Origin: Escherichia phage BEK7
Strand: one strand, 5' to 3'
Sequence record: MN158209.1
DNA: 51,031 nt
Shown: in pieces, positions 5,332 to 43,305 of the stretch
Layout of the letters: each line of letters begins with the position of its first letter
Numbering within the stretch: position 1 is the stretch's first letter
The notes under the pieces: model-generated
Seen by the model: only the letters and a program-made list of their open reading frames with translations
Databases searched by the model: none
Told to the model about the DNA's origin: nothing
Made by a program: the position numbers and the translations under genes

Positions 5332-5844
5332 ATGGCTACAATTGGAGCAAGTTATTTTGATGTAATGTCTCGCGCGTTACCTGGTCAGGTTTCTGACACT
5401 TCAGCTTATAATATTGATGGCGCTTGTGTTCTTGAGAATGCAGCAGGAAACCAGAACAAAAACATTTTTGTTGGTGTGGCAGTCCAGCATGGCGGCGTTG
5501 ACGCTATGGGCAATAAGCTAATTAAGCCGATGGCGGCAAGCGGCAAGGCTTACGGCGTTGCAATTCGTTCTCACTTTCAGACAACTGCGTCTGACGGTCG
5601 AATGATTTATGAATCTGGCGGCGGAATCAACGTAATGACTGAAGGGCGTGTTTGGATGTTGGCTAAAGACGCCACCGCGCCAGCGTTCGGCACTACAATC
5701 AAACTGTCTGAGGATGGTCAGGTTGATACCGGGTCTGGCACTATCGAAACAAAATGGATCGCGACTGGTGATTTCACCAAGTTTCAAGACTTGAAGCTGG
5801 TAGAGGTTCAGGTGCAAAAAGTTCCGGCATCTTCAGCAGGTTAA
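5332..5844 (+). CDS. capsid-associated protein, paralog A (possible decoration protein)
   Basis: 170 aa; shares GVA(I/V)R...G.VW.L...AP.(F/Y)G...DG...WI.TG pattern with the next ORF; followed by hairpin terminator. Confidence 0.4.
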   Translation: MATIGASYFDVMSRALPGQVSDTSAYNIDGACVLENAAGNQNKNIFVGVAVQHGGVDAMGNKLIKPMAASGKAYGVAIRSHFQTTASDGRMIYESGGGINVMTEGRVWMLAKDATAPAFGTTIKLSEDGQVDTGSGTIETKWIATGDFTKFQDLKLVEVQVQKVPASSAG

Positions 5845-5849
5845 TAAAT

Positions 5850-5876
5850 ATGGCGCTCACTGAGCGCCTTTTTTAT
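5850..5876 (+). terminator. rho-independent terminator
   Basis: GGCGCTCA-CTGAGCGCC then TTTTTT. Confidence 0.6.
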
Positions 5877-5890
5877 ATTTGGAGTTTCTC

Positions 5891-6325
5891 ATGAGTGATT
5901 ATTCAGTCATTGTTGGCGCTGAGTCGCAAGGGTGCATGGTCGATTCTTCAATAATGGTGATTAACGGTTCTTTCGTGTGCGGAGATGAATTTATTGCGCC
6001 AGGTAAGATTGTTCGACTATCACATATAACAAATGGATACAAAATAGCCAGTATTAATGGGGATCTCGTTATTGGCGTGGCAGTAAGGCCGCTGGACTCG
6101 TGCATATATGAGGAGGGTGATCCCGTTAATGTGGTTAGTAGAGGTAGTGTGTGGTGCTTAACTTCTGAGAGAGAAGCGCCAGAATATGGAGATAAAGTAT
6201 TTGTAACGCAAGATGGAGATGCGGCATACAGTGAAGGCGACTTGCTGATTGGTTGGATCTTTACTGGTGAACATGTAAAGGTTGATCATGATTCATATAT
6301 TGTCGGGGTAAGCATTAACGCATAA
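5891..6325 (+). CDS. capsid-associated protein, paralog B
   Basis: Start moved to ATG after GGAG; similar to 5332-5844 product by eye. Confidence 0.4.
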   Translation: MSDYSVIVGAESQGCMVDSSIMVINGSFVCGDEFIAPGKIVRLSHITNGYKIASINGDLVIGVAVRPLDSCIYEEGDPVNVVSRGSVWCLTSEREAPEYGDKVFVTQDGDAAYSEGDLLIGWIFTGEHVKVDHDSYIVGVSINA

Positions 6326-6343
6326 CACAAAATTATGTTGCAC

Positions 6344-6362
6344 GTTTAACAAAAAATGCTAT
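6344..6362 (-). promoter_or_regulatory. conserved element, atypical reversed copy inside structural operon
   Basis: Reverse complement GTTTAACAAAAAATGCTAT on + strand between capsid paralog B and major capsid gene; oriented against local transcription; lacks the usual 22-nt spacing to a -10. Confidence 0.3.
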
Positions 6363-6408
6363 CATTGTGGCGTTACATACTAACGACCTTTATATATGGA
6401 GGAAGAAA

Positions 6409-7383
6409 ATGGAAAAAGAAAAATTTGATCAGCTAGATGCGGATATTGTTTCTAGCTATCTGGCTACTCGCGGCGTTAAAGGTGATGCGTCCGATATGGG
6501 TATTTGGGCCGCTAAAGAACTGCATAAGATTCGCTCTGATGCTTACGAGAAAGAATATCCGGCAGGTTCTGCGCTTCGTGTATTCCCTGTAACTAATGAG
6601 CTTTCTGATACTGATAAGACTTTTGAATATCAGATGTTCGACAAGGTTGGTTACGCAAAAATTATCGCTGATTACACCGACGACCTGCCGACCGTTGACG
6701 CGCTGATGTCCAGCGAATTCGGTAAAGTTTTCCGCTTGGGTAACGCGTTCTTGATCTCAATTGACGAAATCAAGGCTGGTCAGCGTACTGGTAAGAGCCT
6801 TTCCACTCGCAAGGCAAACGCAGCGCAAAACGCCCATGATCAGGAAGTTAACCGCCTGGTGTTTAAGGGTTCAAAGCCGCATAAGATTCTTTCGGTGTTT
6901 GAACACCCTAACCTGACAAAGATTACATCTTCTGGCTGGTTAAGTCATGATGAAAACACTAAGTTCCCTCAAGCGGCATCTGATGAGCTGGAAAAGGCTA
7001 TTGAAACCATTCAGACCATTACCAATGGTCAGCACCGCGCAACCAATATCCTGATTCCGCCGTCTATGCGCAAGGTTCTTTCCGTTCGAATGGAAAACAC
7101 CACTGAAAGTTATCTGGAATACTTCCAGAAACAAAACAGCGGGATCACCATCGATTCAATCGCAGAACTCGAGGATATTGATGGCACTGGAACGAAAGGT
7201 TGCCTGGTATATGAGAAAGACCCGATGAACATGTCGATCGAAATTCCAGAAGCATTTAACATGCTTCCGGCGCAACCAAAAGATCTGCATTTCAAAGTTC
7301 CGTGTACTTCAAAATGTACTGGCCTGACGATTTACCGTCCGTTTACGCTAGTGCTTATTACTGGCTTGAAAAAATCAAGTTAA
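6409..7383 (+). CDS. major capsid protein
   Basis: About 325 aa from ATG after RBS GGAGGAAGAAA; position after scaffold; strong terminator hairpin downstream. Confidence 0.65.
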   Translation: MEKEKFDQLDADIVSSYLATRGVKGDASDMGIWAAKELHKIRSDAYEKEYPAGSALRVFPVTNELSDTDKTFEYQMFDKVGYAKIIADYTDDLPTVDALMSSEFGKVFRLGNAFLISIDEIKAGQRTGKSLSTRKANAAQNAHDQEVNRLVFKGSKPHKILSVFEHPNLTKITSSGWLSHDENTKFPQAASDELEKAIETIQTITNGQHRATNILIPPSMRKVLSVRMENTTESYLEYFQKQNSGITIDSIAELEDIDGTGTKGCLVYEKDPMNMSIEIPEAFNMLPAQPKDLHFKVPCTSKCTGLTIYRPFTLVLITGLKKSS

Positions 7384-7394
7384 TCGTATAGCAT

Positions 7395-7426
7395 TGGGGA
7401 ATCCTTAACTGGATTCCCTTTTTTAT
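7395..7426 (+). terminator. rho-independent terminator after major capsid gene
   Basis: GGGGAATCC-TTAACT-GGATTCCC then TTTTTT. Confidence 0.65.
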
Positions 7427-7439
7427 TGGAGGTTATGAA

Positions 7440-7712
7440 ATGGCTAAAGAAAAAACTGTAACGCTAAAGGTTTCCGGCGTGTGCCTTATCATTGTTGATG
7501 GTGAGCATTATCATCCAGGCAAAGAGTTTGACGTAGAAGAATCAAAATTGAAAACAAGCGCGTTTGAATATCTAATTGCAAAAGGCGATCTGGAGGTTAA
7601 AGACAACTCCGCATTGAACGAAGAAATCAAACAGAGCGCAGCAAGCAAACGTAAAAAAGACCCGCGAGAGGGCAAGAGCAAAGCCGAACTTGAAGACGGC
7701 GGCATCTATTAA
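7440..7712 (+). CDS. hypothetical protein
   Basis: 90-aa ORF between two terminator hairpins, RBS GGAGG upstream. Confidence 0.4.
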
Positions 7713-7713
7713 T

Positions 7714-7742
7714 AAAGAGGGCGCTTATAGCGCCCTCTTTCA
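7714..7742 (+). terminator. hairpin terminator
   Basis: AGAGGGCGC-TTAT-AGCGCCCTCT then TTT. Confidence 0.5.
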
Positions 7743-7759
7743 TATCTGGAGGAAACACA

Positions 7760-8176
7760 ATGGTTGATGAATTTTTCACTGACGCAGAAATCACGCAGCA
7801 AATCGTGAAATTAGCGCCACCGATGAAGCAGATTGATCCAGATTTAATGGTGGCATGGATTGAGCTTGCAAAGGAATTTGTTTGCAAGAAGCGGTTTAAA
7901 GAGTTATATCCTAAAGCGGTTGCTCTTTATACGTTGCACCTTATGACGCTTGATGGAGCCATGAAGCAAGAAGGGGAAAGCGTAGAAAGTTACTCGCGGC
8001 GAGTTGCGTCATTTTCCCTGACTGGTGAATTTAGCCAGACCTTTGATCGAGTGTCAGGCGACTCTGGCGGAAAAGATATTAGACAAACTCCCTGGGGGAA
8101 AATGTACGAAACGCTAAATCGTAAGAAAGGCGGTGGATTTGGTCTTGTGACTGGATTTAGGAGGCGTTGCAAATGA
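7760..8176 (+). CDS. head-tail connector protein (putative)
   Basis: 138-aa ORF with RBS GGAGGAAACACAATG; positional assignment. Confidence 0.4.
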
Positions 8177-8544
8177 ACTATAACGAGATCGCAAGAATGG
8201 CAACTGAAGGAATTAACTTCTTTAGTGATGGCAACGGTGAGTTTAAGTGCATAACGCAGCGTGGAAGCGTTGAAATCATCGGAGGAGAAGAAGTAGAAAA
8301 GCCAGAGATCAGTGTAATGATTAAGGGTTTAATTCGCTCCCCAAAAGTACGCGAGGTTGACGGAGAAACAATACGAGTAACCGATAAGTTGGGAGTTTTT
8401 AACAATAAAGTTGAAATTAAGAACGGGTATCATATTGATGTTGATGGTGAATTATATGCTGTAGTTGAAGCAAGACCAATCAGACAAACCAATGTCACTG
8501 TTGCTTATCGGCCTATTTTGAGAAGGATTTCTGTACATGGCTAA
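8173..8544 (+). CDS. head-tail joining protein (putative)
   Basis: ATG after AGGAGG; positional assignment. Confidence 0.4.
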
Positions 8545-8980
8545 AAACTACACGATAAGGGAATTTCACGGCAACATTGATGCGTGGATAAACGCCGTTG
8601 ATAGTGGATTAAAAGATTGCGTGGAGTTGTTCGCCGAAAAAGTACACACAGATTTGGTTAAGCGTTCTCCGGTTGATACTGGTCGTTATCGTGCAAACTG
8701 GCAGGTAACAGCAAACAAGCCGCCATTGTATGCGCTTAATCAGTACGATAAGCACGGAGACAAAACGATCGCGGAAGGAAAACGTGCCATATACGCAATA
8801 TTACGAGGTGGCGGCGCAGTAAGAGCTATTTATTTTTCCAACATGCTTATTTATGCTAACGCGCTTGAGTACGGTCATTCAAAACAAGCGCCAGCGGGTG
8901 TGCTTGGTATTGTTGCCGTGAAATTGCGTTCATATATGGCTGAAGCAATAAAAGAGTCGAGGGCTAAAAATGCACTATGA
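8537..8980 (+). CDS. neck / tail completion protein (putative)
   Basis: 147-aa ORF overlapping neighbours; positional. Confidence 0.4.
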   Translation: MAKNYTIREFHGNIDAWINAVDSGLKDCVELFAEKVHTDLVKRSPVDTGRYRANWQVTANKPPLYALNQYDKHGDKTIAEGKRAIYAILRGGGAVRAIYFSNMLIYANALEYGHSKQAPAGVLGIVAVKLRSYMAEAIKESRAKNAL

Positions 8981-9479
8981 TGATATATTCACATACAAAG
9001 ATGGACTTATTTACTGGAAGATTCAGATTAAAGATCAGTCAAAATGTAAGTATCCTTGTTCTGTTGGCGACGTAGCTGGAAATGTAAATAATCGCGGATA
9101 CGTTGTTGTTAATATGTTTGGCGGTCAGTTTAGGGTTCATCGCATAGTTTGGGAGATGCACAACGGGCCAATTCCTGACGGCATGGAGATTGACCATATT
9201 AATCACAACACAACTGACAACAGAATTGAGAATCTAAGGATTGTTGATAGATCTGGAAACATGAGAAACAAAACAATCGACAAAAGAAACTCAAGCGGAG
9301 TTACCGGTGTTTACTATCATCGAAAAAACAAGAAATGGTACGCTCAAATAATGCACAACAAAAAGAGGTTGCACTTAGGTTTCTTTGTTAGCTTTGATGA
9401 AGCTGCTAAAGCAAGAAAAGATGCAGAATTAAATTTTGGATACCACAAAAATCACGGAGTTCAACATGAGTCACTATGA
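8970..9479 (+). CDS. HNH homing endonuclease (HNH_3 + AP2-like domain)
   Basis: Motif HRIVWEMHNGPIPDGMEIDHINHNTTDNRIENLRIV plus C-terminal AP2-like segment; inserted within the structural operon. Confidence 0.85.
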   Translation: MHYDDIFTYKDGLIYWKIQIKDQSKCKYPCSVGDVAGNVNNRGYVVVNMFGGQFRVHRIVWEMHNGPIPDGMEIDHINHNTTDNRIENLRIVDRSGNMRNKTIDKRNSSGVTGVYYHRKNKKWYAQIMHNKKRLHLGFFVSFDEAAKARKDAELNFGYHKNHGVQHESL

Positions 9480-14536: not shown

Positions 14537-14562
14537 CAAGCCGCCTTTGTGCGGCTTTTTTA
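14537..14562 (+). terminator. rho-independent terminator
   Basis: AAGCCGC-CTTTGT-GCGGCTT then TTTTT. Confidence 0.6.
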
Positions 14563-14595
14563 TTGATGATACAATGCACGAAAGGAGGTGCAATT

Positions 14596-16672: not shown

Positions 16673-16700
16673 GAGTCGCGCGTTGCGCGGCTTTTTTTTT
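16673..16700 (+). terminator. rho-independent terminator before J-like gene
   Basis: CGCGC-GTT-GCGCG then 9-nt T-run. Confidence 0.6.
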
Positions 16701-16745
16701 GCCCGTATAATTCAACAAATCAAATAGCACAAAAGGTGAAAAATA

Positions 16746-21571: not shown

Positions 21572-21591
21572 GTTTAGCAAAAAGTGCTATT
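21572..21591 (-). promoter_or_regulatory. conserved element upstream of Cor-like lipoprotein gene
   Basis: Minus-strand ATAGCACTTTTTGCTAAAC; TATAGT 21 nt downstream; about 60 nt before ATG at 21516. Confidence 0.45.
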
Positions 21592-33426: not shown

Positions 33427-34545
33427 ATGAGTCAAAGCAAGATAACCGACGAGCAATTCACGCATGAGCGATTAAAGGGTAAGAGCTATCGACAGATTGC
33501 TGAGGAATACGGCCTGAATGTTCGCAGCGTCGAGCGCCGAGCGGCACGACTGGCAAAGCAGGGAAAAATAACCACTGTAGGAACGCCTGGTTTTGGTGTT
33601 CACGGCGAATCGGTCATGACCGACAAAGAAGGTAACGTGATCCTCAAATGGACAAAGACCAGTAAGGACAAAGAGCAACTGGAAGCGTTGATGCGCGCAG
33701 CTATGGACGCTTTTACCGAAGAATTACCTCGTGTAGATCCGACACCAGAAGAAACAATAAAATACAGAGAAAGCCTTGCCCTTTACCCCGTTTTTGATAT
33801 GCACCTGGGAGCTATGGCGCACAAGCACGAATGCGGCGAGAATTGGGATACATCAACGGCAGAGAAGGTAATGAATGACTTTTTCGATTATGCTGTGGCC
33901 TGCGCCCCGTTCAGCGAGAAAGCAGTGCTGCTGATTGGCGGCGACATGCTTCACAGTGACGGCCTGGAAGCGGTAACTCCTGCAAGCGGTCACGTATTGG
34001 ATCAAGATAGCCGATACGCAAAATTAGTTTACGTTGCAATTCGTGCCGTCCGTCGAGCCATTGAGTTGATGCTCAAAAAACACAAAGAAGTCGAGATCCA
34101 GATAATTGAGGGCAACCATGACCAAAGCGGCATGATCTGGTTACGTGCAGCTATGGCGGCGGCATATGAAAAAGAGCCTCGCGTTTACGTTGATGTATCG
34201 CCGCGAGTGGTTCACCATACGCAGTACGGAAAAACATTCCTTGCATATCATCACGGTCACACCGTCCGAAAGCCGGAAACATTGCTAATGATGTGCGCAG
34301 CAGACTGGCGGGAGGACTTTGGAAACTCAAAAACTATGTATGCGCACGTAGGGCATTTTCATCATCAGACTGTAACAGAAACATCGCTAGGCATTGTTGA
34401 AGTACATAGCACGATGGCAGCTAAAGACGCATACGCCGCGCGAGGCGGTTGGCGTTCCCGTCGCCGTGCTGCGGTTATCATTTACGACAAAGAACACGGC
34501 GAAATCGGACGCTTTATGTTTTATCCTGAAATGGCAGATAAATAA
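33427..34545 (+). CDS. calcineurin-like metallophosphoesterase with N-terminal HTH domain
   Basis: Phosphoesterase motifs DMH, GGDMLHSDG, EGNHD and His-rich HVGHFHH; N-terminal HTH-like YRQIAEEYGLNVRSVERR. Confidence 0.6.
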   Translation: MSQSKITDEQFTHERLKGKSYRQIAEEYGLNVRSVERRAARLAKQGKITTVGTPGFGVHGESVMTDKEGNVILKWTKTSKDKEQLEALMRAAMDAFTEELPRVDPTPEETIKYRESLALYPVFDMHLGAMAHKHECGENWDTSTAEKVMNDFFDYAVACAPFSEKAVLLIGGDMLHSDGLEAVTPASGHVLDQDSRYAKLVYVAIRAVRRAIELMLKKHKEVEIQIIEGNHDQSGMIWLRAAMAAAYEKEPRVYVDVSPRVVHHTQYGKTFLAYHHGHTVRKPETLLMMCAADWREDFGNSKTMYAHVGHFHHQTVTETSLGIVEVHSTMAAKDAYAARGGWRSRRRAAVIIYDKEHGEIGRFMFYPEMADK

Positions 34546-35546: not shown

Positions 35547-35945
35547 ATGCGAAAGTTATCAATAATCGCGATCGCTGTTATTTTGTCTGGATGTTCAAGC
35601 GTTACGCCACTGACCGGATTAATCGGCAGTAAACCGGAAATCACAGCACAGGCAGGAGCTGAGAACGTAAAGCAGACCGTTGGCGTTACCGCAAAGCAGG
35701 ACACCAGTACAAAACAGGAAACCACAATAAAGGAATCTGCGGTTGATAAGGTGGACACTTCAAGCAAGAAGGATTTCACTACGTCAACCATTCAGGCTAA
35801 CACCATCAAGGCTGATAAAATCCAGGTCGTGCAGGGTGAGCAAAGGAAATGGTACGATCCTATAATCTATTGCGCTGCGATTTTCAGTGGTCTTTTGACT
35901 ATGCTTTACTTTTCCTACCGCAAAGGCAACAAAAAGGAGGCTTAA
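35547..35945 (+). CDS. unimolecular spanin (u-spanin)
   Basis: N-terminal lipoprotein signal with lipobox LSGC plus C-terminal TMD (IIYCAAIFSGLLTMLYF); architecture as described for T1 gp11. Confidence 0.7.
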   Translation: MRKLSIIAIAVILSGCSSVTPLTGLIGSKPEITAQAGAENVKQTVGVTAKQDTSTKQETTIKESAVDKVDTSSKKDFTTSTIQANTIKADKIQVVQGEQRKWYDPIIYCAAIFSGLLTMLYFSYRKGNKKEA

Positions 35946-35956
35946 CGCCTCCTTTG

Positions 35957-36199
35957 TTATTCAATACGCTTTACAGTAACCAATAAAACGCCGTCATCAT
36001 CACACAAATTATGCTCTGATATGTTAAACGCTCGCATGTCAGAATGAATTAGCGTTAACATTGCGTGCATGAAGTCGCCATGTGAGATTTGAGAAGTAGC
36101 GCAAAACTTAAGAATTTCATCTATCAGTTTACTTTCCATGATTTTCATGATAACCAAGTTTAGCCTCTGCTTGTTCTCTTGCCATAATTGCATCATCAA
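35957..36199 (-). CDS. hypothetical protein
   Basis: 80-aa ORF, last gene of leftward cluster. Confidence 0.35.
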   Translation of the reverse strand: MMMQLWQENKQRLNLVIMKIMESKLIDEILKFCATSQISHGDFMHAMLTLIHSDMRAFNISEHNLCDDDGVLLVTVKRIE

Positions 36200-36214
36200 T
36201 GCTTGAAAATAATC

Positions 36215-36601
36215 CTAAATGAATACTCTTACCTTTATCATATATGGTTGCATGCCATTTCTTTCTTTCTTCCTCCAGCACACTCCAACCCTACCAGATT
36301 TATTTCTTTTTAGTAGAGATACGTTTTTGCTGTTCTCTAATCTTGATGCAAGCCTTAAATTTTCAATCCTGTTATCCAACCTATTGTGCCATATATGATC
36401 TATCTCCATTCCTTCTGGTATTTTTCCATTGTGCATTTCCCATATTATTCTATGAGCCAAAAGCAATACACCATTATACCTTATTCTTACATAGCCATTT
36501 TTATCTACACATCCAGCAACGATTCCTGGCTTTGCTTTTCCCCTTCTGTTTCTCCATCTCAATATTCCATTGTCATATATAAATATTTTATTCCAATCCA
36601 T
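36215..36601 (-). CDS. HNH homing endonuclease
   Basis: HRIIWEMHNGKIPEGMEIDHIWHNRLDNRIENLRLA. Confidence 0.85.
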   Translation of the reverse strand: MDWNKIFIYDNGILRWRNRRGKAKPGIVAGCVDKNGYVRIRYNGVLLLAHRIIWEMHNGKIPEGMEIDHIWHNRLDNRIENLRLASRLENSKNVSLLKRNKSGRVGVCWRKKERNGMQPYMIKVRVFI

Positions 36602-36986
36602 ATCTTTTCCTTAGAGCTTCTATTTGTTGTCTATTAGCATTTGGCGTAAACAATTCTTCATCACTCATTTCTCCGATCCGTAAAACATCTCTTACCCATT
36701 CGTTTTGCATACCTTCCAGGCTGTAAAGTTCAAACGAGAAAGGGCGATTTGCTGATCCTTTCTTACACCAGAACTTTCCACAAACTCCATCAAGATAACC
36801 AGCAGTCATCATTCTTGCGCAAAACTCTTTTGAAACGGCAGTCGCAAACATTCTCGGCGTAAATCCTGCGGCCCTTGCGAGCCGCTCACATTCTCTGTGC
36901 TGAAAGATAAATTTTGCTATATGTTGACGCGTAAACCATTCGAATGACTCACACCAGCGATAAATATCAAGTAGAAACACGATCAC
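36588..36986 (-). CDS. hypothetical protein
   Basis: 132-aa ORF (true start probably internal ATG). Confidence 0.35.
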   Translation of the reverse strand: MIVFLLDIYRWCESFEWFTRQHIAKFIFQHRECERLARAAGFTPRMFATAVSKEFCARMMTAGYLDGVCGKFWCKKGSANRPFSFELYSLEGMQNEWVRDVLRIGEMSDEELFTPNANRQQIEALRKRYGLE

Positions 36987-38566
36987 CCCAGCAATGTTGG
37001 ATTTACGAAAACAACGCCATTAATCACACAAATATAATTTCTTTCCTCAAGCATCGGAAGCAGTTGCGTTTCCATGCGCTTCATTACGCCAGCCTGACCA
37101 ACAAAAGGCTTAACTTTTCGTGCTGCCTCATATATGGCGCGCACATTCAAGATTCCCTTATTAGCCTTGCCGTGTCGAGTGATGATCTCGATTAGTTTAC
37201 CCATTTCAGCATCATCACCAGCATAGCCAGAAGCGTTTGCGGCGCTAATGTATGTTTTGCTCAACTCGCTAAACATCAGCAATGCTTCCTGAACGGTTTC
37301 AACCTCAATCTCTTTAGACTTCTGAGGGTATCCACCAGGATTAAACCAATTGCGGATAGTGTGCAAAACCGAAGCAATCCTGATCACCTGCTTATCCATT
37401 TTGCCAAGCGCACCTCGCAGCATTGTATGCGAATACTTTCCGCCATCAGCAAGATGCGGTTCCATCTCCTGACGAGCCATGTTAAGCACTCGCATTGCTG
37501 ATTTGCTGATCTTAAGCTGGATGTTTGATTCGCTCATTATGTTATGGATCAGCTTGAAATATTGGCTTTTCAGTTCCCCATCAACAGGTTCATAAGTAGA
37601 GTCACCGTTATCATCAACAAACTTTCTACGGCCTAAAAATGATTCCTCACGCACAAGCAAATAACGCTCACTTACACCGATACCTCGCGATCCTGCATCC
37701 ATGATGGCATTGATTGTTTCATCCTGGGCAATTACCGCCATACATCCAAGAGCTTTAAAACTCATATTGTTGTCAGCGTTTGCGCGAGCTATAGAAACAT
37801 GACCGTGATCCCATGCTTTCAGCACAAGTTCGCTGTTTGTTTTGCGTTCGCTATTGGCATATGTCAGACCTAAAAGGCTGTTAATACTCGTTGCCTCGTC
37901 TGAAATTACAGCAAAGTTACCCTGGCGATTGTTGATTCTTGCAAGTCCTTCCGGCGTGGTATCGGACACAGGGAAAACAATGTCACACATCTTTTCAAGT
38001 TTTTCTTCAAGATCTTCTTTCTCCTGGTATAGCGATTCCATGTCAGCGCCAGATCGCTCGCTTTTCATCTCTTTTGCAAGACCTGCCAACTTTGCCTGAA
38101 TCTTTTTTCGTTCCTTCTTTCGCTGATCATTAATTCTTTCTACTTCAGCAACCATAGGAGCAAGCGCCAGGCTGTTAACGGCAGATTTACCAGTTGAAGG
38201 AGGCTGGCTTGTGACAACATAAAGAGCGGTCGGCTGATCCGTTCCGTGATACTCAACAGTGAAGCGTCCAAGCATTGCAGCAGACACACATCCGATAAAA
38301 TGCATATATGCCGATGATTCAGGGAACTGAACTGATCGAGCAATGTTGCGCGCCAACTTACCAACAACATCAACATCATTGCCAAGAGAAATTATAGGGT
38401 AGCGATCGTTTCCGTTATTAACATCATTAACCCCACCCCAAAAGCTGGACGATTGACGGTATCCGTTAGCCTGAATGGACACGCGCACCGGAGACAATCC
38501 TTGCGCATCAGCTAATTCTATAATTTGTTTTGGTGTTAGTTTATTGGTTTCAAACGAAAAATTCAT
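36983..38566 (-). CDS. P-loop NTPase protein (possible replication protein)
   Basis: ATG after GGAG; Walker A-like SQPPSTGKS; about 527 aa; no other motif recognised. Confidence 0.45.
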   Translation of the reverse strand: MNFSFETNKLTPKQIIELADAQGLSPVRVSIQANGYRQSSSFWGGVNDVNNGNDRYPIISLGNDVDVVGKLARNIARSVQFPESSAYMHFIGCVSAAMLGRFTVEYHGTDQPTALYVVTSQPPSTGKSAVNSLALAPMVAEVERINDQRKKERKKIQAKLAGLAKEMKSERSGADMESLYQEKEDLEEKLEKMCDIVFPVSDTTPEGLARINNRQGNFAVISDEATSINSLLGLTYANSERKTNSELVLKAWDHGHVSIARANADNNMSFKALGCMAVIAQDETINAIMDAGSRGIGVSERYLLVREESFLGRRKFVDDNGDSTYEPVDGELKSQYFKLIHNIMSESNIQLKISKSAMRVLNMARQEMEPHLADGGKYSHTMLRGALGKMDKQVIRIASVLHTIRNWFNPGGYPQKSKEIEVETVQEALLMFSELSKTYISAANASGYAGDDAEMGKLIEIITRHGKANKGILNVRAIYEAARKVKPFVGQAGVMKRMETQLLPMLEERNYICVINGVVFVNPTLLG

Positions 38567-38619
38567 TGGTGATAACTCCTTTTTGATGCGGCAATAATAC
38601 CGCACCAATGCTACCCGCA

Positions 38620-38638
38620 TTTAACAAAAAATGCTATT
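38620..38638 (-). promoter_or_regulatory. conserved 21-nt promoter-like element (copy)
   Basis: Minus-strand AATAGCATTTTTTGTTAAA; its TAG is the stop of ORF 38634-38897; TATTAT 22 nt downstream. Confidence 0.5.
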
Positions 38639-38897
38639 TGATCCGCTCTATGCTAACTAAGATTTTTTCTGGTTCCTTTGCACTATGGAAATGCGCGGTT
38701 ACAGAATCAACAAAATCAAAGTAAAGTGATTTGTGATATGAGAATCCAATCAGCCAACCTACCGCCGTTTTTTTGATGGGCCTGACTATATCGCCAGGCT
38801 TGAAGGTTTTTGTTGCTGAATAAGTCACCTTATAGCGATATTCAGTCTTGATCATGAGACTTCTCTTTTCCGTGGTTTTCGTGGAAACCATGCTCAA
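38634..38897 (-). CDS. hypothetical protein
   Basis: 87-aa ORF. Confidence 0.35.
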   Translation of the reverse strand: MSMVSTKTTEKRSLMIKTEYRYKVTYSATKTFKPGDIVRPIKKTAVGWLIGFSYHKSLYFDFVDSVTAHFHSAKEPEKILVSIERIK

Positions 38898-39360
38898 TCA
38901 ACAACCTATCTATTGCTGATATAGCCGACTCAATACATGTGTGCCATCCACCATAAATCAATCTACCATCAACCTTTACATTAACCTTGTACTTCCCCCT
39001 ATTTTCGTACCAGATAATTCCTATATGACCGATTGTATTGTTAGATCGCATGGATAAATTTCGTCCGTTTATCGACCTTGTAACCAATCTCAAGTTTTCT
39101 ATCCTGTTATCAGTTCTGTCATGGTTTATGTGATCAATTTCCATTCCTTGAGGAATATCTCCGTTGTGCATAATCCAAACAACCCTGTGAGCATAAATTT
39201 GTACACCTTCTACAGTTAGCTTTACATACCCTTTGCTGTTTACGGTTCCAGCCTCAAGACTGCGTTTTCTACCCTTTCTCCACTCCTTCCAGTAAAGAAT
39301 ACCGTCGTCGTATCTTAGTTGGCTTAGAAGTATTTCGCTTGAAATTTTGCAGTTGCACAT
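38842..39360 (-). CDS. HNH homing endonuclease
   Basis: HRVVWIMHNGDIPQGMEIDHINHDRTDNRIENLRLV. Confidence 0.85.
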   Translation of the reverse strand: MCNCKISSEILLSQLRYDDGILYWKEWRKGRKRSLEAGTVNSKGYVKLTVEGVQIYAHRVVWIMHNGDIPQGMEIDHINHDRTDNRIENLRLVTRSINGRNLSMRSNNTIGHIGIIWYENRGKYKVNVKVDGRLIYGGWHTCIESAISAIDRLLIEHGFHENHGKEKSHDQD

Positions 39361-39707
39361 TCAAAACCATCCTCGCAGCGATATAGAGTAAAGCGATCAC
39401 CTTGTTCATCGTAAACATACCCAGCAACAGCGCCAAGCACTCTACCACTTTCCACTTGATACCTCTTTCCTTGCTTGAAAGTTTTCTTAACGCTAAGAGA
39501 ATGGTCAACGAAAGTGCAAAGTATTGTTTTTGTCTTGATATGACGATAGTCAGACTCAACAGCGTTTTGCCACTTGCTACCCTTTGTAATGCTCTTTACC
39601 TGGAATTGTTCCAACTCGATCACATCATCGCTACCAGCAATTTTTTCGTATACAGCTTTATAACGACCGTTCATCAAAACGTTGGTTTTATTGCAGATAA
39701 CTTTCAT
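39324..39707 (-). CDS. hypothetical protein
   Basis: 127-aa ORF about 70 nt downstream of an element copy. Confidence 0.4.
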   Translation of the reverse strand: MKVICNKTNVLMNGRYKAVYEKIAGSDDVIELEQFQVKSITKGSKWQNAVESDYRHIKTKTILCTFVDHSLSVKKTFKQGKRYQVESGRVLGAVAGYVYDEQGDRFTLYRCEDGFECATAKFQAKYF

Positions 39708-39762
39708 CGTTTATTTCTCCTTTCGTTTCGGTGAAGTGATTATGCCAGGTTTTTACACCTGG

Positions 39763-39783
39763 CTTTTAACAAAAAGTGCTATT
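39763..39783 (-). promoter_or_regulatory. conserved 21-nt promoter-like element (copy)
   Basis: Minus-strand AATAGCACTTTTTGTTAAAAG; TAG is the stop of ORF 39779-40465; hairpin CCAGGT...ACCTGG then CATAAT. Confidence 0.5.
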
Positions 39784-40465
39784 TTGAGTTTGCCTCAAAT
39801 ACGGCGCGAGCAAATCCTCGCGGAGTGAGTGAGCGTAGTTGCTTTGTTCTGGCAGACTTACCGCCTAAAAACTTCCAACCCCAAAAGAACATTACGCCCT
39901 CATCATTGCATAACGGCTTGCGTTCGGGTTCTGTAAATCCGTTGCCGCACCAGATAGCAGTCCTTTTTGTGTATCCATCCTTTAGCGGCATCTTGGGGTG
40001 AAAAGATCCATCGGATTCGTCCAGGTAGTTACCAAAATCGCGCGGATTGAAATAAAAATCAGGCTTGCGCCATAGCGTTGATAGTCGGCCTACAGGATTC
40101 TCAGCCATCCAGGGAACACCGAAATGATTCCCGACAGTTTCAACCATGATTGCATTTTTGAGCGCGACCTGAATATCATCATCGCTTCGCAAGTGCTTAC
40201 TTCCTGATTGGGCAAACATGGTGCAGTCTGGAAATCCAAATACAATATCTGGTTTTGGAATATCCATCTTACTGATTCTTTCAATGAAATTTTCATCAAT
40301 CCACATATTCACATAATGAAGATTTTCATGCTTCATCTTGATGAAATATTCTCCGTGGTTGCCTTCGTCAGCGTTGAAGCAATAGCATTGATAGCCAGCC
40401 TTCGCATATTCCAGCAACATAATTCCAGATCCATCAAACATTGAGTAAGCGATTTTTTGTTTCAT
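39779..40465 (-). CDS. C5-cytosine methyltransferase-like protein (compact, no obvious target-recognition domain)
   Basis: AdoMet motif I-like YSMFDGSG, PC-like FGFPDCTMFAQSG, ENV-like AENPVG; only 228 aa. Confidence 0.45.
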   Translation of the reverse strand: MKQKIAYSMFDGSGIMLLEYAKAGYQCYCFNADEGNHGEYFIKMKHENLHYVNMWIDENFIERISKMDIPKPDIVFGFPDCTMFAQSGSKHLRSDDDIQVALKNAIMVETVGNHFGVPWMAENPVGRLSTLWRKPDFYFNPRDFGNYLDESDGSFHPKMPLKDGYTKRTAIWCGNGFTEPERKPLCNDEGVMFFWGWKFLGGKSARTKQLRSLTPRGFARAVFEANSK

Positions 40466-40474
40466 CTTTCAGCC

Positions 40475-40699
40475 TCAAAACGGAAAGCATATGGGGCAGT
40501 TCGGATCAAAATTGCAACCACAATCATTAACAATCATAGTTGGATCTGCAAATGCAGCGCCGCATTCATGATCCATATCCATTTCACCCAACGCATCATC
40601 AAGCGTCCTGATCTTATATGCAACTTCAAGCGCCGCCTCTTTATTTAGTCCGGCATCTTCTGCCATTTGAAGGCGTTCAAAAAAACCGTCCTGACTCAT
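40475..40699 (-). CDS. hypothetical Cys-rich small protein
   Basis: 74 aa with HECG...CGC...CPIC cluster. Confidence 0.4.
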   Translation of the reverse strand: MSQDGFFERLQMAEDAGLNKEAALEVAYKIRTLDDALGEMDMDHECGAAFADPTMIVNDCGCNFDPNCPICFPF

Positions 40700-40809
40700 T
40701 TCATAAACTCCTTAATAACAGCAAGAATAATTACAAGACCAGCAGTAAAAACAAGAAAACCGACAAGGCCAATCATAACACCAAATAAAATATCAAGCGC
40801 CTTAATCAT
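40696..40809 (-). CDS. hypothetical 37-aa membrane peptide (below ORF-track cutoff)
   Basis: Translation MIKALDILFGVMIGLVGFLVFTAGLVIILAVIKEFMK from reverse strand; stop overlaps next start (ATGA). Confidence 0.3.
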   Translation of the reverse strand: MIKALDILFGVMIGLVGFLVFTAGLVIILAVIKEFMK

Positions 40810-40819
40810 TTATTCACCA

Positions 40820-40850
40820 TTGATAAAACGGGAGGCAGCAACCTCCCATT
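40820..40850 (-). terminator. hairpin terminator-like element (minus strand)
   Basis: GGGAGGC-AGCAA-CCTCCC followed on minus strand by GTTTTAT. Confidence 0.4.
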
Positions 40851-40856
40851 AATTAA

Positions 40857-41123
40857 TCAGACAGCCTTCCAGCTTTCAATGAACATGCTGTTCTCTTCAA
40901 GAAGTTTAATCAATTCTTCGCGAGTATATTTGCGAATTTTACTACCAGGATGCGAGCCAACAACAAACACACCTTTACCGCTTGTGATTGTTAACTGGTT
41001 GATTCCACAAGATTGATCAATTTTCACAGCGACGCGGTGATGTGCATCAACAGTGTGCATGATGTTAGTTACTTTAGCTTTCATTGCGCGATCCTCATTA
41101 TATTTGGTTTGGTAACTATACAA
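40857..41123 (-). CDS. hypothetical protein
   Basis: ORF in track. Confidence 0.35.
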   Translation of the reverse strand: MYSYQTKYNEDRAMKAKVTNIMHTVDAHHRVAVKIDQSCGINQLTITSGKGVFVVGSHPGSKIRKYTREELIKLLEENSMFIESWKAV

Positions 41124-41258
41124 GGTTTAAGAAATATTGTTTAGCAATTCGTGATATCAGTTGAAATGGCTATGGCGTTTTGCTCGCTTTCCGTCTCCGC
41201 CATAATGATCATTAGAAACAGCAATCATCCAGGAATTATGGAATATTATTAGCTTCAT

Positions 41259-41537
41259 CTAATTAATACCAACCAAGTTAAAACTTACATTTTTTGTTGA
41301 GAATACATACGCCTCAACAGCGCCGCCAAATACGCGAATTTTCCCATGTCCGTACTGCGTATTCATATTGCGCCAAACCGTTATATTAGAACAGAACGCG
41401 CTACCAGTCTTAATGAGATTATCCATTTCTCTTCTTAGATCACGATAATCAAGCCAGAATCTATAAGCGCGTTGTTTAATTCGCGCCGACTTGATTATCT
41501 CGATTGCGCTATTGAAATCATTCTTTTCATATGCCAT
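41259..41537 (-). CDS. hypothetical protein
   Basis: ORF in track. Confidence 0.35.
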   Translation of the reverse strand: MAYEKNDFNSAIEIIKSARIKQRAYRFWLDYRDLRREMDNLIKTGSAFCSNITVWRNMNTQYGHGKIRVFGGAVEAYVFSTKNVSFNLVGIN

Positions 41538-41734
41538 TAGATGATCTCCATATAGGTTTCAAAGCCAGTCAACTTGAACAAGCCGTTTTCACATTTTCGC
41601 ACGTTCCAAGTCAGCCCTGAGTGGTACGCCTCCATATCATCAAGATCAATGGTGATTTCAACGCCTTTCTTAAATAATCCTTTTTCGTGAGATTTGTCGC
41701 GCTTAACCACTTTAACATCAACCTGTGTTTCCAT
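41537..41734 (-). CDS. hypothetical protein
   Basis: Start moved to ATG (METQVDV); about 68 nt downstream of an element copy. Confidence 0.35.
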   Translation of the reverse strand: METQVDVKVVKRDKSHEKGLFKKGVEITIDLDDMEAYHSGLTWNVRKCENGLFKLTGFETYMEII

Positions 41735-41791
41735 TTTCAAATCCTCGCATTCGTTGTCGATGCGCTTAATATACCAATCAGAGGCGCATCG

Positions 41792-41812
41792 GTTTTAACA
41801 AAAAGTGCTATT
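41792..41812 (-). promoter_or_regulatory. conserved 21-nt promoter-like element (copy)
   Basis: Minus-strand AATAGCACTTTTTGTTAAAAC; TATATT lies in the loop of hairpin GATGCGC...GCGCATC. Confidence 0.5.
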
Positions 41813-42171
41813 TAGTCCAGGAATTCGATTTCACGTTCTCCAGTTAGCGGATCTACAAGCCAGAATCCGAGCGGCTCGCCGTAAACACCGCCATAGAATC
41901 CAAGCGCCGACAGATCTTCACCTTTAACGAATGCCAGGTTTCCGCAACGACTTACGTGAGACACGTTAACGATAACCGGAAAGGTGCGATCCTTAAACGC
42001 AGGCCGCAGGGCGTAACACCCGTTATTGAGCAAACGTGCTTTGCGCTTAACTGGAATAGGTGCATTGATTCGCGCCATCTCTATTTCTCCATTGTTGTTA
42101 ACCATGTTTAACGGCATCCAGAACATCACAGGATTCGTTAATAAATTTTGCCATGCGCTTATCATCACCAA
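41812..42171 (-). CDS. hypothetical protein
   Basis: ORF in track. Confidence 0.35.
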   Translation of the reverse strand: MVMISAWQNLLTNPVMFWMPLNMVNNNGEIEMARINAPIPVKRKARLLNNGCYALRPAFKDRTFPVIVNVSHVSRCGNLAFVKGEDLSALGFYGGVYGEPLGFWLVDPLTGEREIEFLD

Positions 42172-42337
42172 CAGGGATTAGCGCGTTAAACTCGAGTTTG
42201 CTACTGAATACCGTAACTTTATGAAACGATGCGAACGGCATCGACGGGAACTCCACTGTTTGCGTCAAGATCCGCAACCCCATCTTTTTGGCCCTTACCT
42301 GGGCCTCTGCAAGTTCAAAATCCATCTCATTAATCAT
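42098..42337 (-). CDS. hypothetical protein
   Basis: ORF in track. Confidence 0.3.
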   Translation of the reverse strand: MINEMDFELAEAQVRAKKMGLRILTQTVEFPSMPFASFHKVTVFSSKLEFNALIPVGDDKRMAKFINESCDVLDAVKHG

Positions 42338-42606
42338 TTCTTGATCTCCTCAGCAATAAACTTCAATACCTGGCGCAAAAACACTTCGTTGTTGATGGTC
42401 GCTGGCAATTCTTCTTTCACTTCTTGCGGCAGATATATATTGCCGTGCCAGGTCAAGCAATCGTAGTTGATACGATAAGAGCAAAGCCATTCGCAATCGT
42501 TATCTGCTTCCCAAATGCAAAGCTGCATTACGTCGCCAAAATCCTCAACAGTCAGATCCAGACCGTGACGCTTAGCGAAGTTGAAAGTGGTTTTGCTGAT
42601 GTTCAT
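42334..42606 (-). CDS. hypothetical protein (first gene of leftward cluster)
   Basis: 90-aa ORF, RBS GGAGAT, about 65 nt downstream of an element copy. Confidence 0.4.
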   Translation of the reverse strand: MNISKTTFNFAKRHGLDLTVEDFGDVMQLCIWEADNDCEWLCSYRINYDCLTWHGNIYLPQEVKEELPATINNEVFLRQVLKFIAEEIKK

Positions 42607-42664
42607 TGCTATCTCCTGAGCGTTTCGTTTCGATGTGTGTAATGTACCCGATCAGGCGGATTCA

Positions 42665-42685
42665 GTTTTAACAAAAAGTGCTATT
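42665..42685 (-). promoter_or_regulatory. conserved 21-nt promoter-like element (copy)
   Basis: Minus-strand AATAGCACTTTTTGTTAAAAC; TACATT 22 nt downstream. Confidence 0.5.
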
Positions 42686-42949
42686 TGCCGACTGGTTATT
42701 ATTCCATCTATTCCATTAATCAGGAATAACAGGAATAACTCATTCGCGATCACCTGGATTGTGAGACTTTGAGTTTGATCAATTTTAATCAGTTGATTAA
42801 CTTTTTGTGCGGAGGGGATAGAGAAACACGGTCCTCTCGCATCCTTTCCGGCAATCCTGGCGAGCAATTCTGTTTCTTTCGTTCCCGTTGTTATGCCAAA
42901 TAGCCCTCCGCAACTGGCGATAACAGAAATCGCGTTGACATAACAAAAA

Positions 42950-43145
42950 AAACAAATATAAATATATATATATACCCATAAAATCAATAAGTTAGTTATA
43001 TATATAATTATAACTGTTATCTGTTGTTATCCTTGTTTCATGGGTATATTGGTAGGTGGTATTGTTTTTGTGAATATGTATGTGTGATTGTATGTTTTTT
43101 AATCAATGGTGATATGTGGTGATTTTGTATGTATATATGTATGGG
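42950..43145. repeat. AT-rich divergent control region, copy B
   Basis: Shares ATAAAATCAATA, TGTTATCTGT, GGTGATTTT, GTATGTATAT blocks with 21661-21850. Confidence 0.6.
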
Positions 43146-43276
43146 GGAGTGGCAATCCTCCGTCAACCAGCTAAACAAGCCAATATTTTCAAGTTAAAAC
43201 AATGACTTAAGCTGTGTCATTTGTTATCAGGCAACAGCATTTTGATAAAAAATGCAGCCAAAACAGAGAAAACATA

Positions 43277-43305
43277 TTGACACCACCAGGCTGCATGGTC
43301 ATAAT
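43277..43305 (+). promoter_or_regulatory. sigma70-like promoter (TTGACA-17-CATAAT)
   Basis: -35 TTGACA 43277-43282, 17-nt spacer, -10 CATAAT 43300-43305, about 40 nt before ATG 43345. Confidence 0.6.

Follow-up and report, generated by a model that had tools for sequence, protein, structure and literature searches.

The leftward arm of T1-like Escherichia phage BEK7 probably mixes core replication genes, an orphan methyltransferase and exchangeable accessory cassettes

Introduction

T1-like phages often turn up as contaminants, are considered for therapy and serve as workhorses of current phage-defence research (SECphi27, BASEL Bas1-13). Several of them carry orthologous gene clusters between the lysis cassette and a divergent intergenic region: ST1-ST10 in T1, gp9-gp25 in SECphi27, gp45-gp55 in Bas11 and bas07_0049-0065 in JakobBernoulli. 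Two proteins encoded in these clusters are known to meet bacterial immunity. One is Gp54 of Bas11, which switches on the toxin-antitoxin defence CapRelSJ46 by binding to it, and which is non-toxic alone and non-essential (PMC11578894); the other is a 128-amino-acid (aa) protein of SECphi27, which is toxic on expression only together with Mokosh type I, an abortive-infection defence (bioRxiv 10.1101/2022.08.27.505566). Here we describe the corresponding cluster of Escherichia phage BEK7 (record MN158209.1), at positions 35957-42606 of a 51,031-nucleotide (nt) stretch of DNA that we call the window. In it, homologues of both experimentally defined immune triggers share one promoter-punctuated cluster with a swapped orphan methyltransferase.

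Two further bodies of work bear on this block. The DUF3987 family groups MCM-related superfamily 6 (SF6) replicative helicases of phages (PMC4889955), one of which, AgaPH, was shown experimentally to be a 5'-3' ATP-dependent helicase (PMC11724360). In T4-type phages, promoter-early stem-loop (PeSL) cassettes have been described (PMC2839356, PMC4122927), in which a terminator stands ahead of a near-consensus -35/-10 promoter.

We read the BEK7 block, at a probability of about 0.72, as the leftward early arm of a virulent T1-like phage, one that mixes core replication functions, an orphan methyltransferase, accessory cassettes and HNH insertions. All of its recognisable components come from known families, and its general layout is typical of virulent-phage early arms. 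We distinguish the core part of the arm from the part that is exchanged and shortlist ~8 small genes for screens of anti-defence and toxicity. Most worth follow-up are the ~8 remaining orphan open reading frames (ORFs) and the architecture of promoter cassettes.

Results

The block is a dense run of genes on one strand

The region of 6650 nt is 100% identical to Escherichia phages BEC3, BEK1-23 and BEK12B and matches other Hanrivervirus phages, including BASEL phage JakobBernoulli/Bas07, at ~91% identity in a patchy fashion. From this near-identity to Hanrivervirus phages, the sequence of the window can be recognised as the complete genome of a T1-like siphovirus (Drexlerviridae, Tempevirinae, Hanrivervirus). 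On a map taken from a well-annotated relative, structural genes lie at 0-20 kb and recombination genes at 21-24 kb, followed by a leftward tail-fibre/primase/regulator arm and a rightward SNF2-helicase/Dam/lysis arm that ends at 35.9 kb; then come the leftward block, a ~640-bp non-coding interval and a rightward small-gene arm that reaches up to the terminase.

The original prediction, made from the letters alone, had placed here a leftward block of 6.6 kb encoding some 14 mostly small proteins. All credible ORFs within the region do lie on the minus strand, GC skew is negative over 36-43 kb and coding density is 94.8%, so the block stands as delimited. The dense packing of small genes was likewise seen correctly, but the count is 17 ORFs (Table 1), against 16 coding sequences in the BEC3 record (14 hypothetical, 2 homing endonuclease); the 17th is the 33-aa o06, which is annotated in relatives. 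Three proteins singled out in the prediction, a Cys-rich one of 74 aa, a 37-aa single-transmembrane peptide and a C5-methyltransferase-like one, are all present.

To assess coding status, substitutions between the window and six relatives were sorted by codon position. Third positions take most of the substitutions in nearly all ORFs of the block (at positions 1/2/3: helicase, 4/1/55; o01, 3/1/17; o07, 3/0/18), and we therefore regard nearly all of them as genuine genes. The same test rules out a 111-aa ORF at 42652-42987, which is given as a coding sequence in JakobBernoulli, herni and others: it has no coding signature, with 7 synonymous against 21 non-synonymous codon changes, and is probably no gene. 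The interval 42.6-43.25 kb is therefore non-coding control DNA, as had been proposed for 42.6-43.2 kb.

Part of this divergent intergenic region, 42940-43150, is AT-rich, with (TA)n runs and several inverted repeats, and is a candidate replication origin or packaging-related site. The equivalent point in T1 is the genome end with its terminal repeat.

Table 1. Positions of genes, promoter-like units and hairpins in the BEK7 block, ordered from the divergent control region leftward
Feature	Position	Strand	Description
P1	42641-42684	minus	Promoter-like unit; box ATAGCACTTTTTGTTAAAA 42666-42684, 19-nt spacer, -10-like TACATT 42641-42646
o01	42334-42606	minus	90 aa; first gene of cluster; Tempevirinae; 44% identical copy in SRT8; phrog_6147
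o02	42098-42337	minus	79 aa; Hanrivervirus only; other genes in its place in SECphi27
o03	41812-42105	minus	97 aa; phrog_9595; related domain in other arm of T1
P2	41768-41811	minus	Promoter-like unit; box 41793-41811, -10-like TATATT 41768-41773
o04	41537-41734	minus	65 aa; Gp54 family
o05	41259-41537	minus	92 aa; translationally coupled to o04 (TAATG overlap)
o06	41157-41258	minus	33 aa; phrog_32259; unannotated in BEC3; coding status uncertain
P3	41115-41157	minus	Promoter-like unit; variant box ATATCACGAATTGCTAAAC 41139-41157, -10-like TATAGT 41115-41120
o07	40857-41084	minus	75 aa; single-gene unit; kept across Drexlerviridae (T1 ST5, SRT8 gp66, NJS2 gp75); phrog_4344
Hairpin	40822-40847	minus	Terminator-like; GGGAGGTTGCTGCCTCCC then GTTTTATC; directly after o07; free energy -17.9 kcal/mol
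o08	40696-40809	minus	37-aa peptide; single transmembrane segment, best 19-aa hydropathy 2.78; weakly constrained
o09	40475-40699	minus	74 aa; Cys-rich
o10	39779-40465	minus	228 aa; compact C5-cytosine-methyltransferase-like protein
P4	39739-39782	minus	Promoter-like unit; box 39764-39782, palindromic spacer GCCAGGT...ACCTGGC, -10-like CATAAT 39739-39744
o11	39324-39707	minus	127 aa; orthologue of SECphi27 128-aa protein (gp13)
HNH2	38842-39360	minus	172 aa; HNH_3 homing endonuclease, inserted between o11 and o13
o13	38634-38855	minus	73 aa; Tempevirinae only
P5	38594-38637	minus	Promoter-like unit; box ATAGCATTTTTTGTTAAAT 38619-38637, -10-like TATTAT 38594-38599 in hairpin loop
o14	36983-38566	minus	527 aa; DUF3987/SF6-type putative replicative helicase; homologue of T1 ST9
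o15	36588-36986	minus	132 aa; GTG start overlaps helicase stop; homologue of T1 ST10
HNH1	36129-36601	minus	HNH_3 homing endonuclease gene, frameshifted
o18	35957-36148	minus	63 aa; last gene of cluster; kept as far as T1, SRT8, NJS2; phrog_9539
Hairpin	35925-35953	minus	Terminator-like; AGGAGGCGTTAAGCCTCCT then TTTTGTTGCC; closes cluster; ~ -22 kcal/mol

Syntenic clusters are found in JakobBernoulli, SECphi27, Bas11, T1, SRT8 and NJS2; the T1 counterpart sits at the right-hand genome end, adjoining the terminal repeat. They share with BEK7 the strand logic, the order of genes (75-aa, Cys-rich, methyltransferase where present, 127-aa, helicase, 132-aa, 63-aa) and a promoter box at equivalent positions. 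Core and variable genes were separated by a tblastn matrix against seven relatives, together with a cassette map and family sizes. Shared across subfamilies in fixed order are the helicase, o15 (132 aa), o18 (63 aa), o07 (75 aa) and, in part, o11 (127 aa; C-terminal half) and o09 (74 aa; N-terminal half). Restricted or variable genes are o01-o06, o08, o13, that of the methyltransferase and the two HNH genes. BEK7 thus differs from other Drexlerviridae in its promoter-proximal cassettes (o02 is found in Hanrivervirus only, and JakobBernoulli and SECphi27 have extra cassettes that the block is missing), in its methyltransferase allele (45-49% identity) and in two HNH insertions, one of them frameshifted.

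A repeated promoter-like unit heads the proposed transcription units

The block is punctuated by an A/T-rich conserved box of 19-21 bp. The pattern AATAGCAC(TTTT/GAAT)TG(T/C)TAAAA(C) has 11 matches at <=3 mismatches against 0.01 expected, and a looser pattern, applied genome-wide at <=2 mismatches, has 18 against 0.54 expected by chance. One match, at 25961, was set aside as it is missing the box core, which leaves 17 copies. Two of the 2-mismatch matches are doubtful, both in the structural module: 6344(-) is antisense and 16724(+) abuts a start codon. The other 15 copies are confined to the non-structural arms, at 21572(-), 28324(-), 28813(+), 31796(+), 32837(+), 38619(-), 39764(-), 41139(-), 41793(-), 42666(-), 44101(+), 45150(+), 46417(+), 47720(+) and 49059(+), each in the orientation of the genes. 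Five of them fall in or at the head of the block, all on the minus strand, which agrees with the prediction of at least five copies of a promoter-like element.

When 14 copies are aligned, the box proves to be the start of a unit of ~85 nt: it is followed by a variable 18-19-nt spacer, a -10-like hexamer (CATAAT, TATAAT, TATAGT, TATATT, TATTAT or TACATT among the copies), an A/C-rich leader, GAGGA and the start codon. The hexamer lies at a fixed 18-20 nt past every good copy and is succeeded by a leader of fixed length and the Shine-Dalgarno sequence. About 10 of the 17 copies also hold a strong hairpin (z <= -3) in one of two registers, a GC-rich palindromic spacer or a palindrome that encloses the -10; the rest have none. 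We had also considered the box as an extended -10 (TGTTAAAAC) and then TTGTTA as a -35; both were dropped, since a -10 at a fixed 18-20 nt downstream puts the TTG ~22 nt away.

Experimental support comes from a relative. Equivalent positions in T1, SRT8, NJS2, SECphi27 and Bas11 carry the same box, and in Bas11 it stands directly upstream of gene 54 with a TATCAT -10. On a plasmid in uninfected E. coli, the native promoter of Bas11 gene 54 gave less expression when escape mutations 'immediately upstream' of the gene were present. Though indirect, this activity is real evidence for the unit as a host-polymerase promoter, and it is compatible with early expression. Leftward transcription, as originally proposed, is supported, in units headed by the repeated element.

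Several points weigh against so simple a promoter. There is no canonical -35 at 16-18 nt: the TAAAAC found 18-19 nt from the -10 has 2/6 of TTGACA, and the box may depend on a co-factor from host or phage. On the opposite strand, palindrome plus TTTTAAC looks terminator-like, and the T1 record annotates such hairpins as terminators. In the literature searched we found no Drexlerviridae phage with a time course of its transcripts or proteins; early timing of the block is suggested by promoter logic and the one indirect Bas11 experiment.

On these grounds the box could instead mark sites of recombination or boundaries, terminate antisense transcripts or bind the phage's transcriptional regulator, within one long operon that starts in the divergent region and is timed by a regulator. 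Besides the missing -35 and the opposite-strand palindrome with its T-run, this account has in its favour that the phage encodes a putative transcriptional regulator and that the units coincide with recombination junctions. We nonetheless think it unlikely: the -10-like hexamer, leader and Shine-Dalgarno sequence keep a fixed spacing, the orientation is always that of the genes, a strong hairpin is present in only ~10/17 copies, and the Bas11 unit drives expression of gene 54 in uninfected cells, at levels that mutations just upstream reduce.

Under the promoter reading, host sigma-70 RNA polymerase would start at five copies of a portable expression unit, with predicted starts ~7 nt past the five -10 hexamers, near 42634, 41761, 41108, 39732 and 38587. 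Leftward transcription would be attenuated at the hairpin after the 75-aa gene and stop at the 35.93 kb terminator. This closing hairpin overlaps the 3' end of the convergent spanin gene, and T1 has an annotated terminator at the same place.

Two other elements outside the block are of a different kind. At 43277-43305 (+), 40 nt upstream of the first rightward gene (ATG 43345), lies a near-consensus sigma-70 promoter, TTGACA-17-CATAAT, so that the two arms start from different types of promoter, the rightward one looking the stronger. In the tail-gene region, 14547-14583 and 16683-16719 hold a different repeat, GCGGC plus a T-run and then TACAAT or TATAAT, which resembles the terminator-promoter junction of a second, possibly late, class.

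The distal unit encodes a putative replicative helicase

The last unit of the block had been overlooked. The prediction called the encoded proteins mostly small and of no recognisable function, a description that fails for the 527-aa o14, which alone occupies 24% of the block, and for its conserved partners. Pfam DUF3987 (PF13148) matches o14 at 149.5 bits (cutoff 27), with residues 100-449 covering profile positions 3-350 of 364, and phrog_2373 'DNA helicase' matches at E=3e-244. In an alignment of 7 sequences, down to 36% identity, the Walker A motif (QPPSxGK; Q121, P122, P123, S124, G126 and K127) is invariant, as are the acidic motifs S222-x-E224 and Q281 D282 E283.

Like AgaPH and other SF6 helicases, o14 has a strong DUF3987 match. 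In the more distant phages C1 and Vibrio D71 the DUF3987 gene adjoins genes for primase, exonuclease VIII, Erf and single-stranded DNA-binding protein. Unlike AgaPH, in which PriCT and DUF3987 are joined, o14 is without a PriCT or primase fusion; the primase gene of the window is ~8 kb away, in a different arm, and a lineage-specific 132-aa protein always follows. By sequence, o14 probably acts as a helicase in BEK7. No solved homologue of the helicase was found by sequence, and PDB sequences yielded nothing meaningful to profile searches with the families of the helicase, o15 and o11.

The 132-aa o15 travels with the helicase. The helicase family has 920 phage records and the o15 family 834, and o15 adjoins the helicase in every listed record that annotates a helicase. 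The pair is core to over 800 Drexlerviridae genomes. The o15 family is narrow (21 representatives among 1.84 billion clustered proteins) and has no informative fusions, and we therefore regard it as a lineage-specific helicase partner. A label of 'cytidine deaminase' (Phold report, T1/KanT1) was rejected for o15: the family conserves no zinc site at its HxE-like and Cys positions, and it has neither fusions nor wider relatives. In some records o15 is labelled 'YdbL'. This and other labels found there ('MORN repeat', 'polyribonucleotide nucleotidyltransferase', 'TamB' and, for o05, 'putative homing endonuclease') have no support in Pfam, PHROGs or PDB, and we take them as annotation noise.

Helicase, 132-aa protein, 63-aa protein and an inserted HNH pseudogene make up ~2.7 kb, ~40% of the block, and this distal unit is a core replication module. 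From P5, it would yield a DUF3987/SF6 replicative helicase and two co-translated small partners. Also core are o07 (75 aa), o11 (127 aa) and, for its N-terminal half, o09 (74 aa).

Homologues of two immune triggers lie in the block

The promoter-proximal part of the block holds a member of the Gp54 family. o04 falls in the Pfam family 'Phage antiviral trigger protein Gp54' (PF25180; E=6e-38, 128.9 bits, cutoff 27) and matches PDB 9axb (Bas11 Gp54; E=7e-18) over its full length; it equals Bas11 Gp54 (PDB 9axb/9erv) in length and occupies the same slot behind the same promoter box. Identity is only ~53-55%, however, and o04 has V7 and V25 in place of A7 and I25. Both Bas11 residues are needed, as A7V or I25V alone largely abolishes CapRelSJ46 activation, and SECphi27 gp19, when assayed, did not activate CapRelSJ46 (PMC11578894). 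Since o04 combines these two valines with 95% identity to the inactive SECphi27 gp19 homologue, we predict from sequence that the BEK7 copy does not trigger CapRelSJ46.

Its translationally coupled neighbour, o05, belongs to an orphan family with only 16 clusters among 5.8 billion proteins and is fast evolving (14 synonymous and 22 non-synonymous changes). An AlphaFold model of o05 was unusable (predicted local distance difference test (pLDDT) 57.8, predicted template modelling score (pTM) 0.44).

Further downstream, o11 matches the SECphi27 128-aa protein at 65% identity over its full length (E=4e-62) in the syntenic position, the same slot upstream of the helicase unit. Mokosh escapers carried E7fs, C102* or Y109C in that protein (bioRxiv 10.1101/2022.08.27.505566); the published 128-aa sequence and the escaper coordinate 6995 both map to SECphi27 gp13, and Y109, changed to C in one escaper, is kept as Y108 in o11. 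The C-terminal half of o11 is conserved across Drexlerviridae, whereas the N-terminal half diverges across the family. Because a frameshift and a nonsense mutation are among the escapers, the SECphi27 gene is dispensable in the laboratory despite its family-wide C-terminal domain. From orthology to the SECphi27 protein, for which the trigger role was assayed, we predict that o11 activates Mokosh type I.

A side observation concerns a gene outside the block. A homologue of the 372-aa phosphoesterase / 'DNA repair exonuclease' at 33427-34545 (+) is an escaper-mutated gene listed in the row just before the Mokosh entries of the Stokar-Avihail supplement; this family may be another defence determinant in these phages.

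How far these links carry the idea of a host-takeover or anti-defence region, which the prediction had favoured, depends on what being sensed means. In sister phages the Gp54 family is sensed by CapRelSJ46 and the 128-aa family, directly or indirectly, by Mokosh type I, and the benefit of the two proteins to the phage may be host takeover or counter-defence. Small, lineage-restricted genes with fast turnover and two immunity-linked, dispensable families do bear out part of the idea, and the dispensability of both families in relatives fits an accessory, host-interaction region. What does not hold is its extension to the core replication module. The links to immunity, moreover, are as triggers: being sensed by a defence system is no evidence of counter-defence, and o04 has the valines that abolish CapRelSJ46 activation. 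Any anti-defence function of an ORF in the block is putative.

The strongest form of that idea would make the whole 6.6 kb an island of small early genes that serve host takeover or anti-defence, none of them in a housekeeping role. Its ORFs are small, dense, promoter-rich and strand-coherent, most have no match in Pfam, NCBIfam or PADLOC, two of the families interact with defence systems in relatives, and Bas11 deletions that take out gene 54 and neighbours are viable. We hold this to be quite improbable because the helicase unit is a replication module whose three proteins are conserved across the compared Drexlerviridae, strong purifying selection acts on several further small ORFs that are core to the whole family, and no ORF matches a known anti-defence protein in Pfam, PHROGs, NCBIfam or PDB.

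The opposite simplification, a plain early or middle replication module, is a more serious contender that we still rate as doubtful. Here the small conserved proteins would be accessories of the replisome, for example loader, origin binder or regulators, and o11 and Gp54 would be sensed as replication parts or abundant by-products and not for any action on the host. The C-terminal domain of o11, o07, o15 and o18 occur in all subfamilies in a fixed order around the helicase; in a large escaper study, triggers were mostly core replication or structural components; and the adjacent AT-rich repeats at 42.9-43.15 kb look origin-like. Yet the codon 7 frameshift and nonsense escapers in the 128-aa protein, together with the Gp54 deletion, make both proteins dispensable in the laboratory, and the promoter-proximal genes are confined to one subfamily and swapped between close relatives.

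A compact methyltransferase-like protein has an exchanged centre

Among the variable genes is o10. Sequence searches relate it weakly to M.HaeIII, at the N-terminus of that enzyme (E=0.0012), and place it in PHROG 757 'DNA methyltransferase'. Its family comprises at least 817 proteins, of which the best 120 are mostly 210-250 aa long and come mainly from phage-sized contigs, with some bacterial genomes; the bacterial homologues sit in prophage early/replication regions, with no restriction enzyme recognisable among their neighbours. Across 46 aligned sequences, motifs I (FDGSG), IV (P79-x-C81) and VI (E122-N-P-V) are present, with G12, S13, P79, C81, E122, N123 and P124 invariant and F10, D11, G14 and V125 nearly so; motifs I and IV align to those of M.HaeIII. 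An AlphaFold model built from this alignment is confident (pLDDT 88.7), and its best structural matches are catalytic domains of C5-cytosine methyltransferases, to which 180-192 residues align out of enzymes of 270-390 aa.

Compared with PF00145 C5-methyltransferases, such as the DNMT3 catalytic domain and orphan phage or prophage enzymes (for example 3g7u from CP-933R), o10 shares the Rossmann-type fold, motifs I (FxGxG), IV (P-C) and VI (ENV-like) and the orphan phage context. It differs in having only 228 aa and ~35 residues in place of the target-recognition domain, and in falling below the Pfam threshold.

On balance, o10 is most likely, from sequence and model, an orphan C5-cytosine methyltransferase that would methylate phage DNA at a short motif and blunt some restriction enzymes. 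A putative anti-restriction role would follow naturally. Other findings pull the opposite way. In Pfam, o10 has no match at E<=0.01, below the PF00145 threshold, and PF00145 is matched by only 4/46 family members (best E=3e-6). The normal target-recognition domain is missing, with ~35 residues between the last core strand and the C-terminal helices, and QxRxR (motif VIII) is not visible. In the BASEL study, most Drexlerviridae were very restriction-sensitive, and methyltransferase genes showed no pattern with resistance (PMC8594841).

The allele itself has a mixed history. o10 is 45% identical to the JakobBernoulli allele and 60% to that of Klebsiella phage NJS2, whereas the flanks are 86-96% identical to JakobBernoulli at the DNA level. 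The centre of the gene, 39835-40425, is non-homologous to the closest relatives, and both gene ends and the flanks are conserved; the allele has therefore been replaced within the gene, and the closest allele found is that of a Klebsiella phage.

A Bdellovibrio prophage offers a separate observation. At 5403-8657 of the compared segment, a gene for a 794-aa primase-polymerase protein, which matches DUF3987 faintly, is followed by a 41-aa ORF and then by a homologue of the compact methyltransferase. This locus may repeat the helicase-methyltransferase neighbourhood in an unrelated element.

Promoter-like units flank exchanged cassettes

Comparison with close relatives ties the repeated unit to gene exchange. 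JakobBernoulli, herni and pSf-1 have a two-gene insert of 425 bp, each side of which aligns to an 82-bp segment around P2 (41731-41812; in JakobBernoulli, 8818-8899 and 9324-9406 of the compared segment), and the same 82 bp align to both flanks of a ~640-bp insert in SECphi27 (5484-5570 and 6211-6297 of the segment compared). With the P2 segment on both flanks of the inserts, we therefore conclude that cassettes are gained and lost by recombination between promoter units. The promoter-proximal accessory genes, found in one subfamily only, would owe their turnover to such events.

This arrangement resembles the PeSLs of T4-type phages. In both, short conserved promoter units cluster among variable early ORFs, and copies flank insertions or deletions between close relatives; a stem-loop goes with PeSLs and, as a strong hairpin, with about 10 of the 17 BEK7 copies. 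The BEK7 units nevertheless belong to another phage family and have a different sequence; their stem-loop lies between box and -10 or around the -10, in contrast to a terminator ahead of the promoter; they add a conserved leader and ribosome-binding site; and they have a good -10 but no near-consensus sigma-70 -35. In the literature searched, we found no description of PeSL-like units for Drexlerviridae.

A bolder proposal is that the ~85-nt units are the Drexlerviridae counterpart of T4 PeSLs, portable and recombining, that the ORFs they carry (o01-o03, Gp54/o05, o13 and the swapped methyltransferase) include undescribed immunity inhibitors, and that the Gp54 and 128-aa families are inhibitors sensed by other defences. 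We put it forward tentatively and consider it rather unlikely to hold in full. If it were true, any captured ORF would be expressed at once by host RNA polymerase.

HNH insertions and the remaining small genes

The prediction had listed two HNH endonucleases. Both genes are present, as homing endonuclease genes inserted at gene junctions of the block, and match PF13392 (HNH_3; E=8e-22 and 2e-23), but HNH1 is frameshifted: relative to the intact Fulano1 gp49, a 1-nt deletion in the AAGAAAGAAAG run leaves a 128-aa HNH part and a 50-aa C-terminal remnant. The frameshift is common to all three Belgian records and reflects either a pseudogene or a homopolymer sequencing error. Both HNH genes are missing from JakobBernoulli, herni and SECphi27; Fulano1, pSf-1 and T1 have other HNH genes at other gene junctions.

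Among the small ORFs, those other than Gp54 have no match to characterised defence inhibitors in Pfam, the PHROGs functional classes, NCBIfam or PDB. Eleven of them gave no match in a concatenated phmmer search against PDB, and PADLOC, a library of defence-system and not anti-defence proteins, returned nothing meaningful on the block. AntiDefenseFinder had likewise found none in the T1-like phage KanT1 (PMC13164509). The Cys-rich o09 is itself composite: its N-terminal half is conserved to T1, and its C-terminal CxC...CxxC cluster (C60, C62, C68, C71) occurs only in Tempevirinae.

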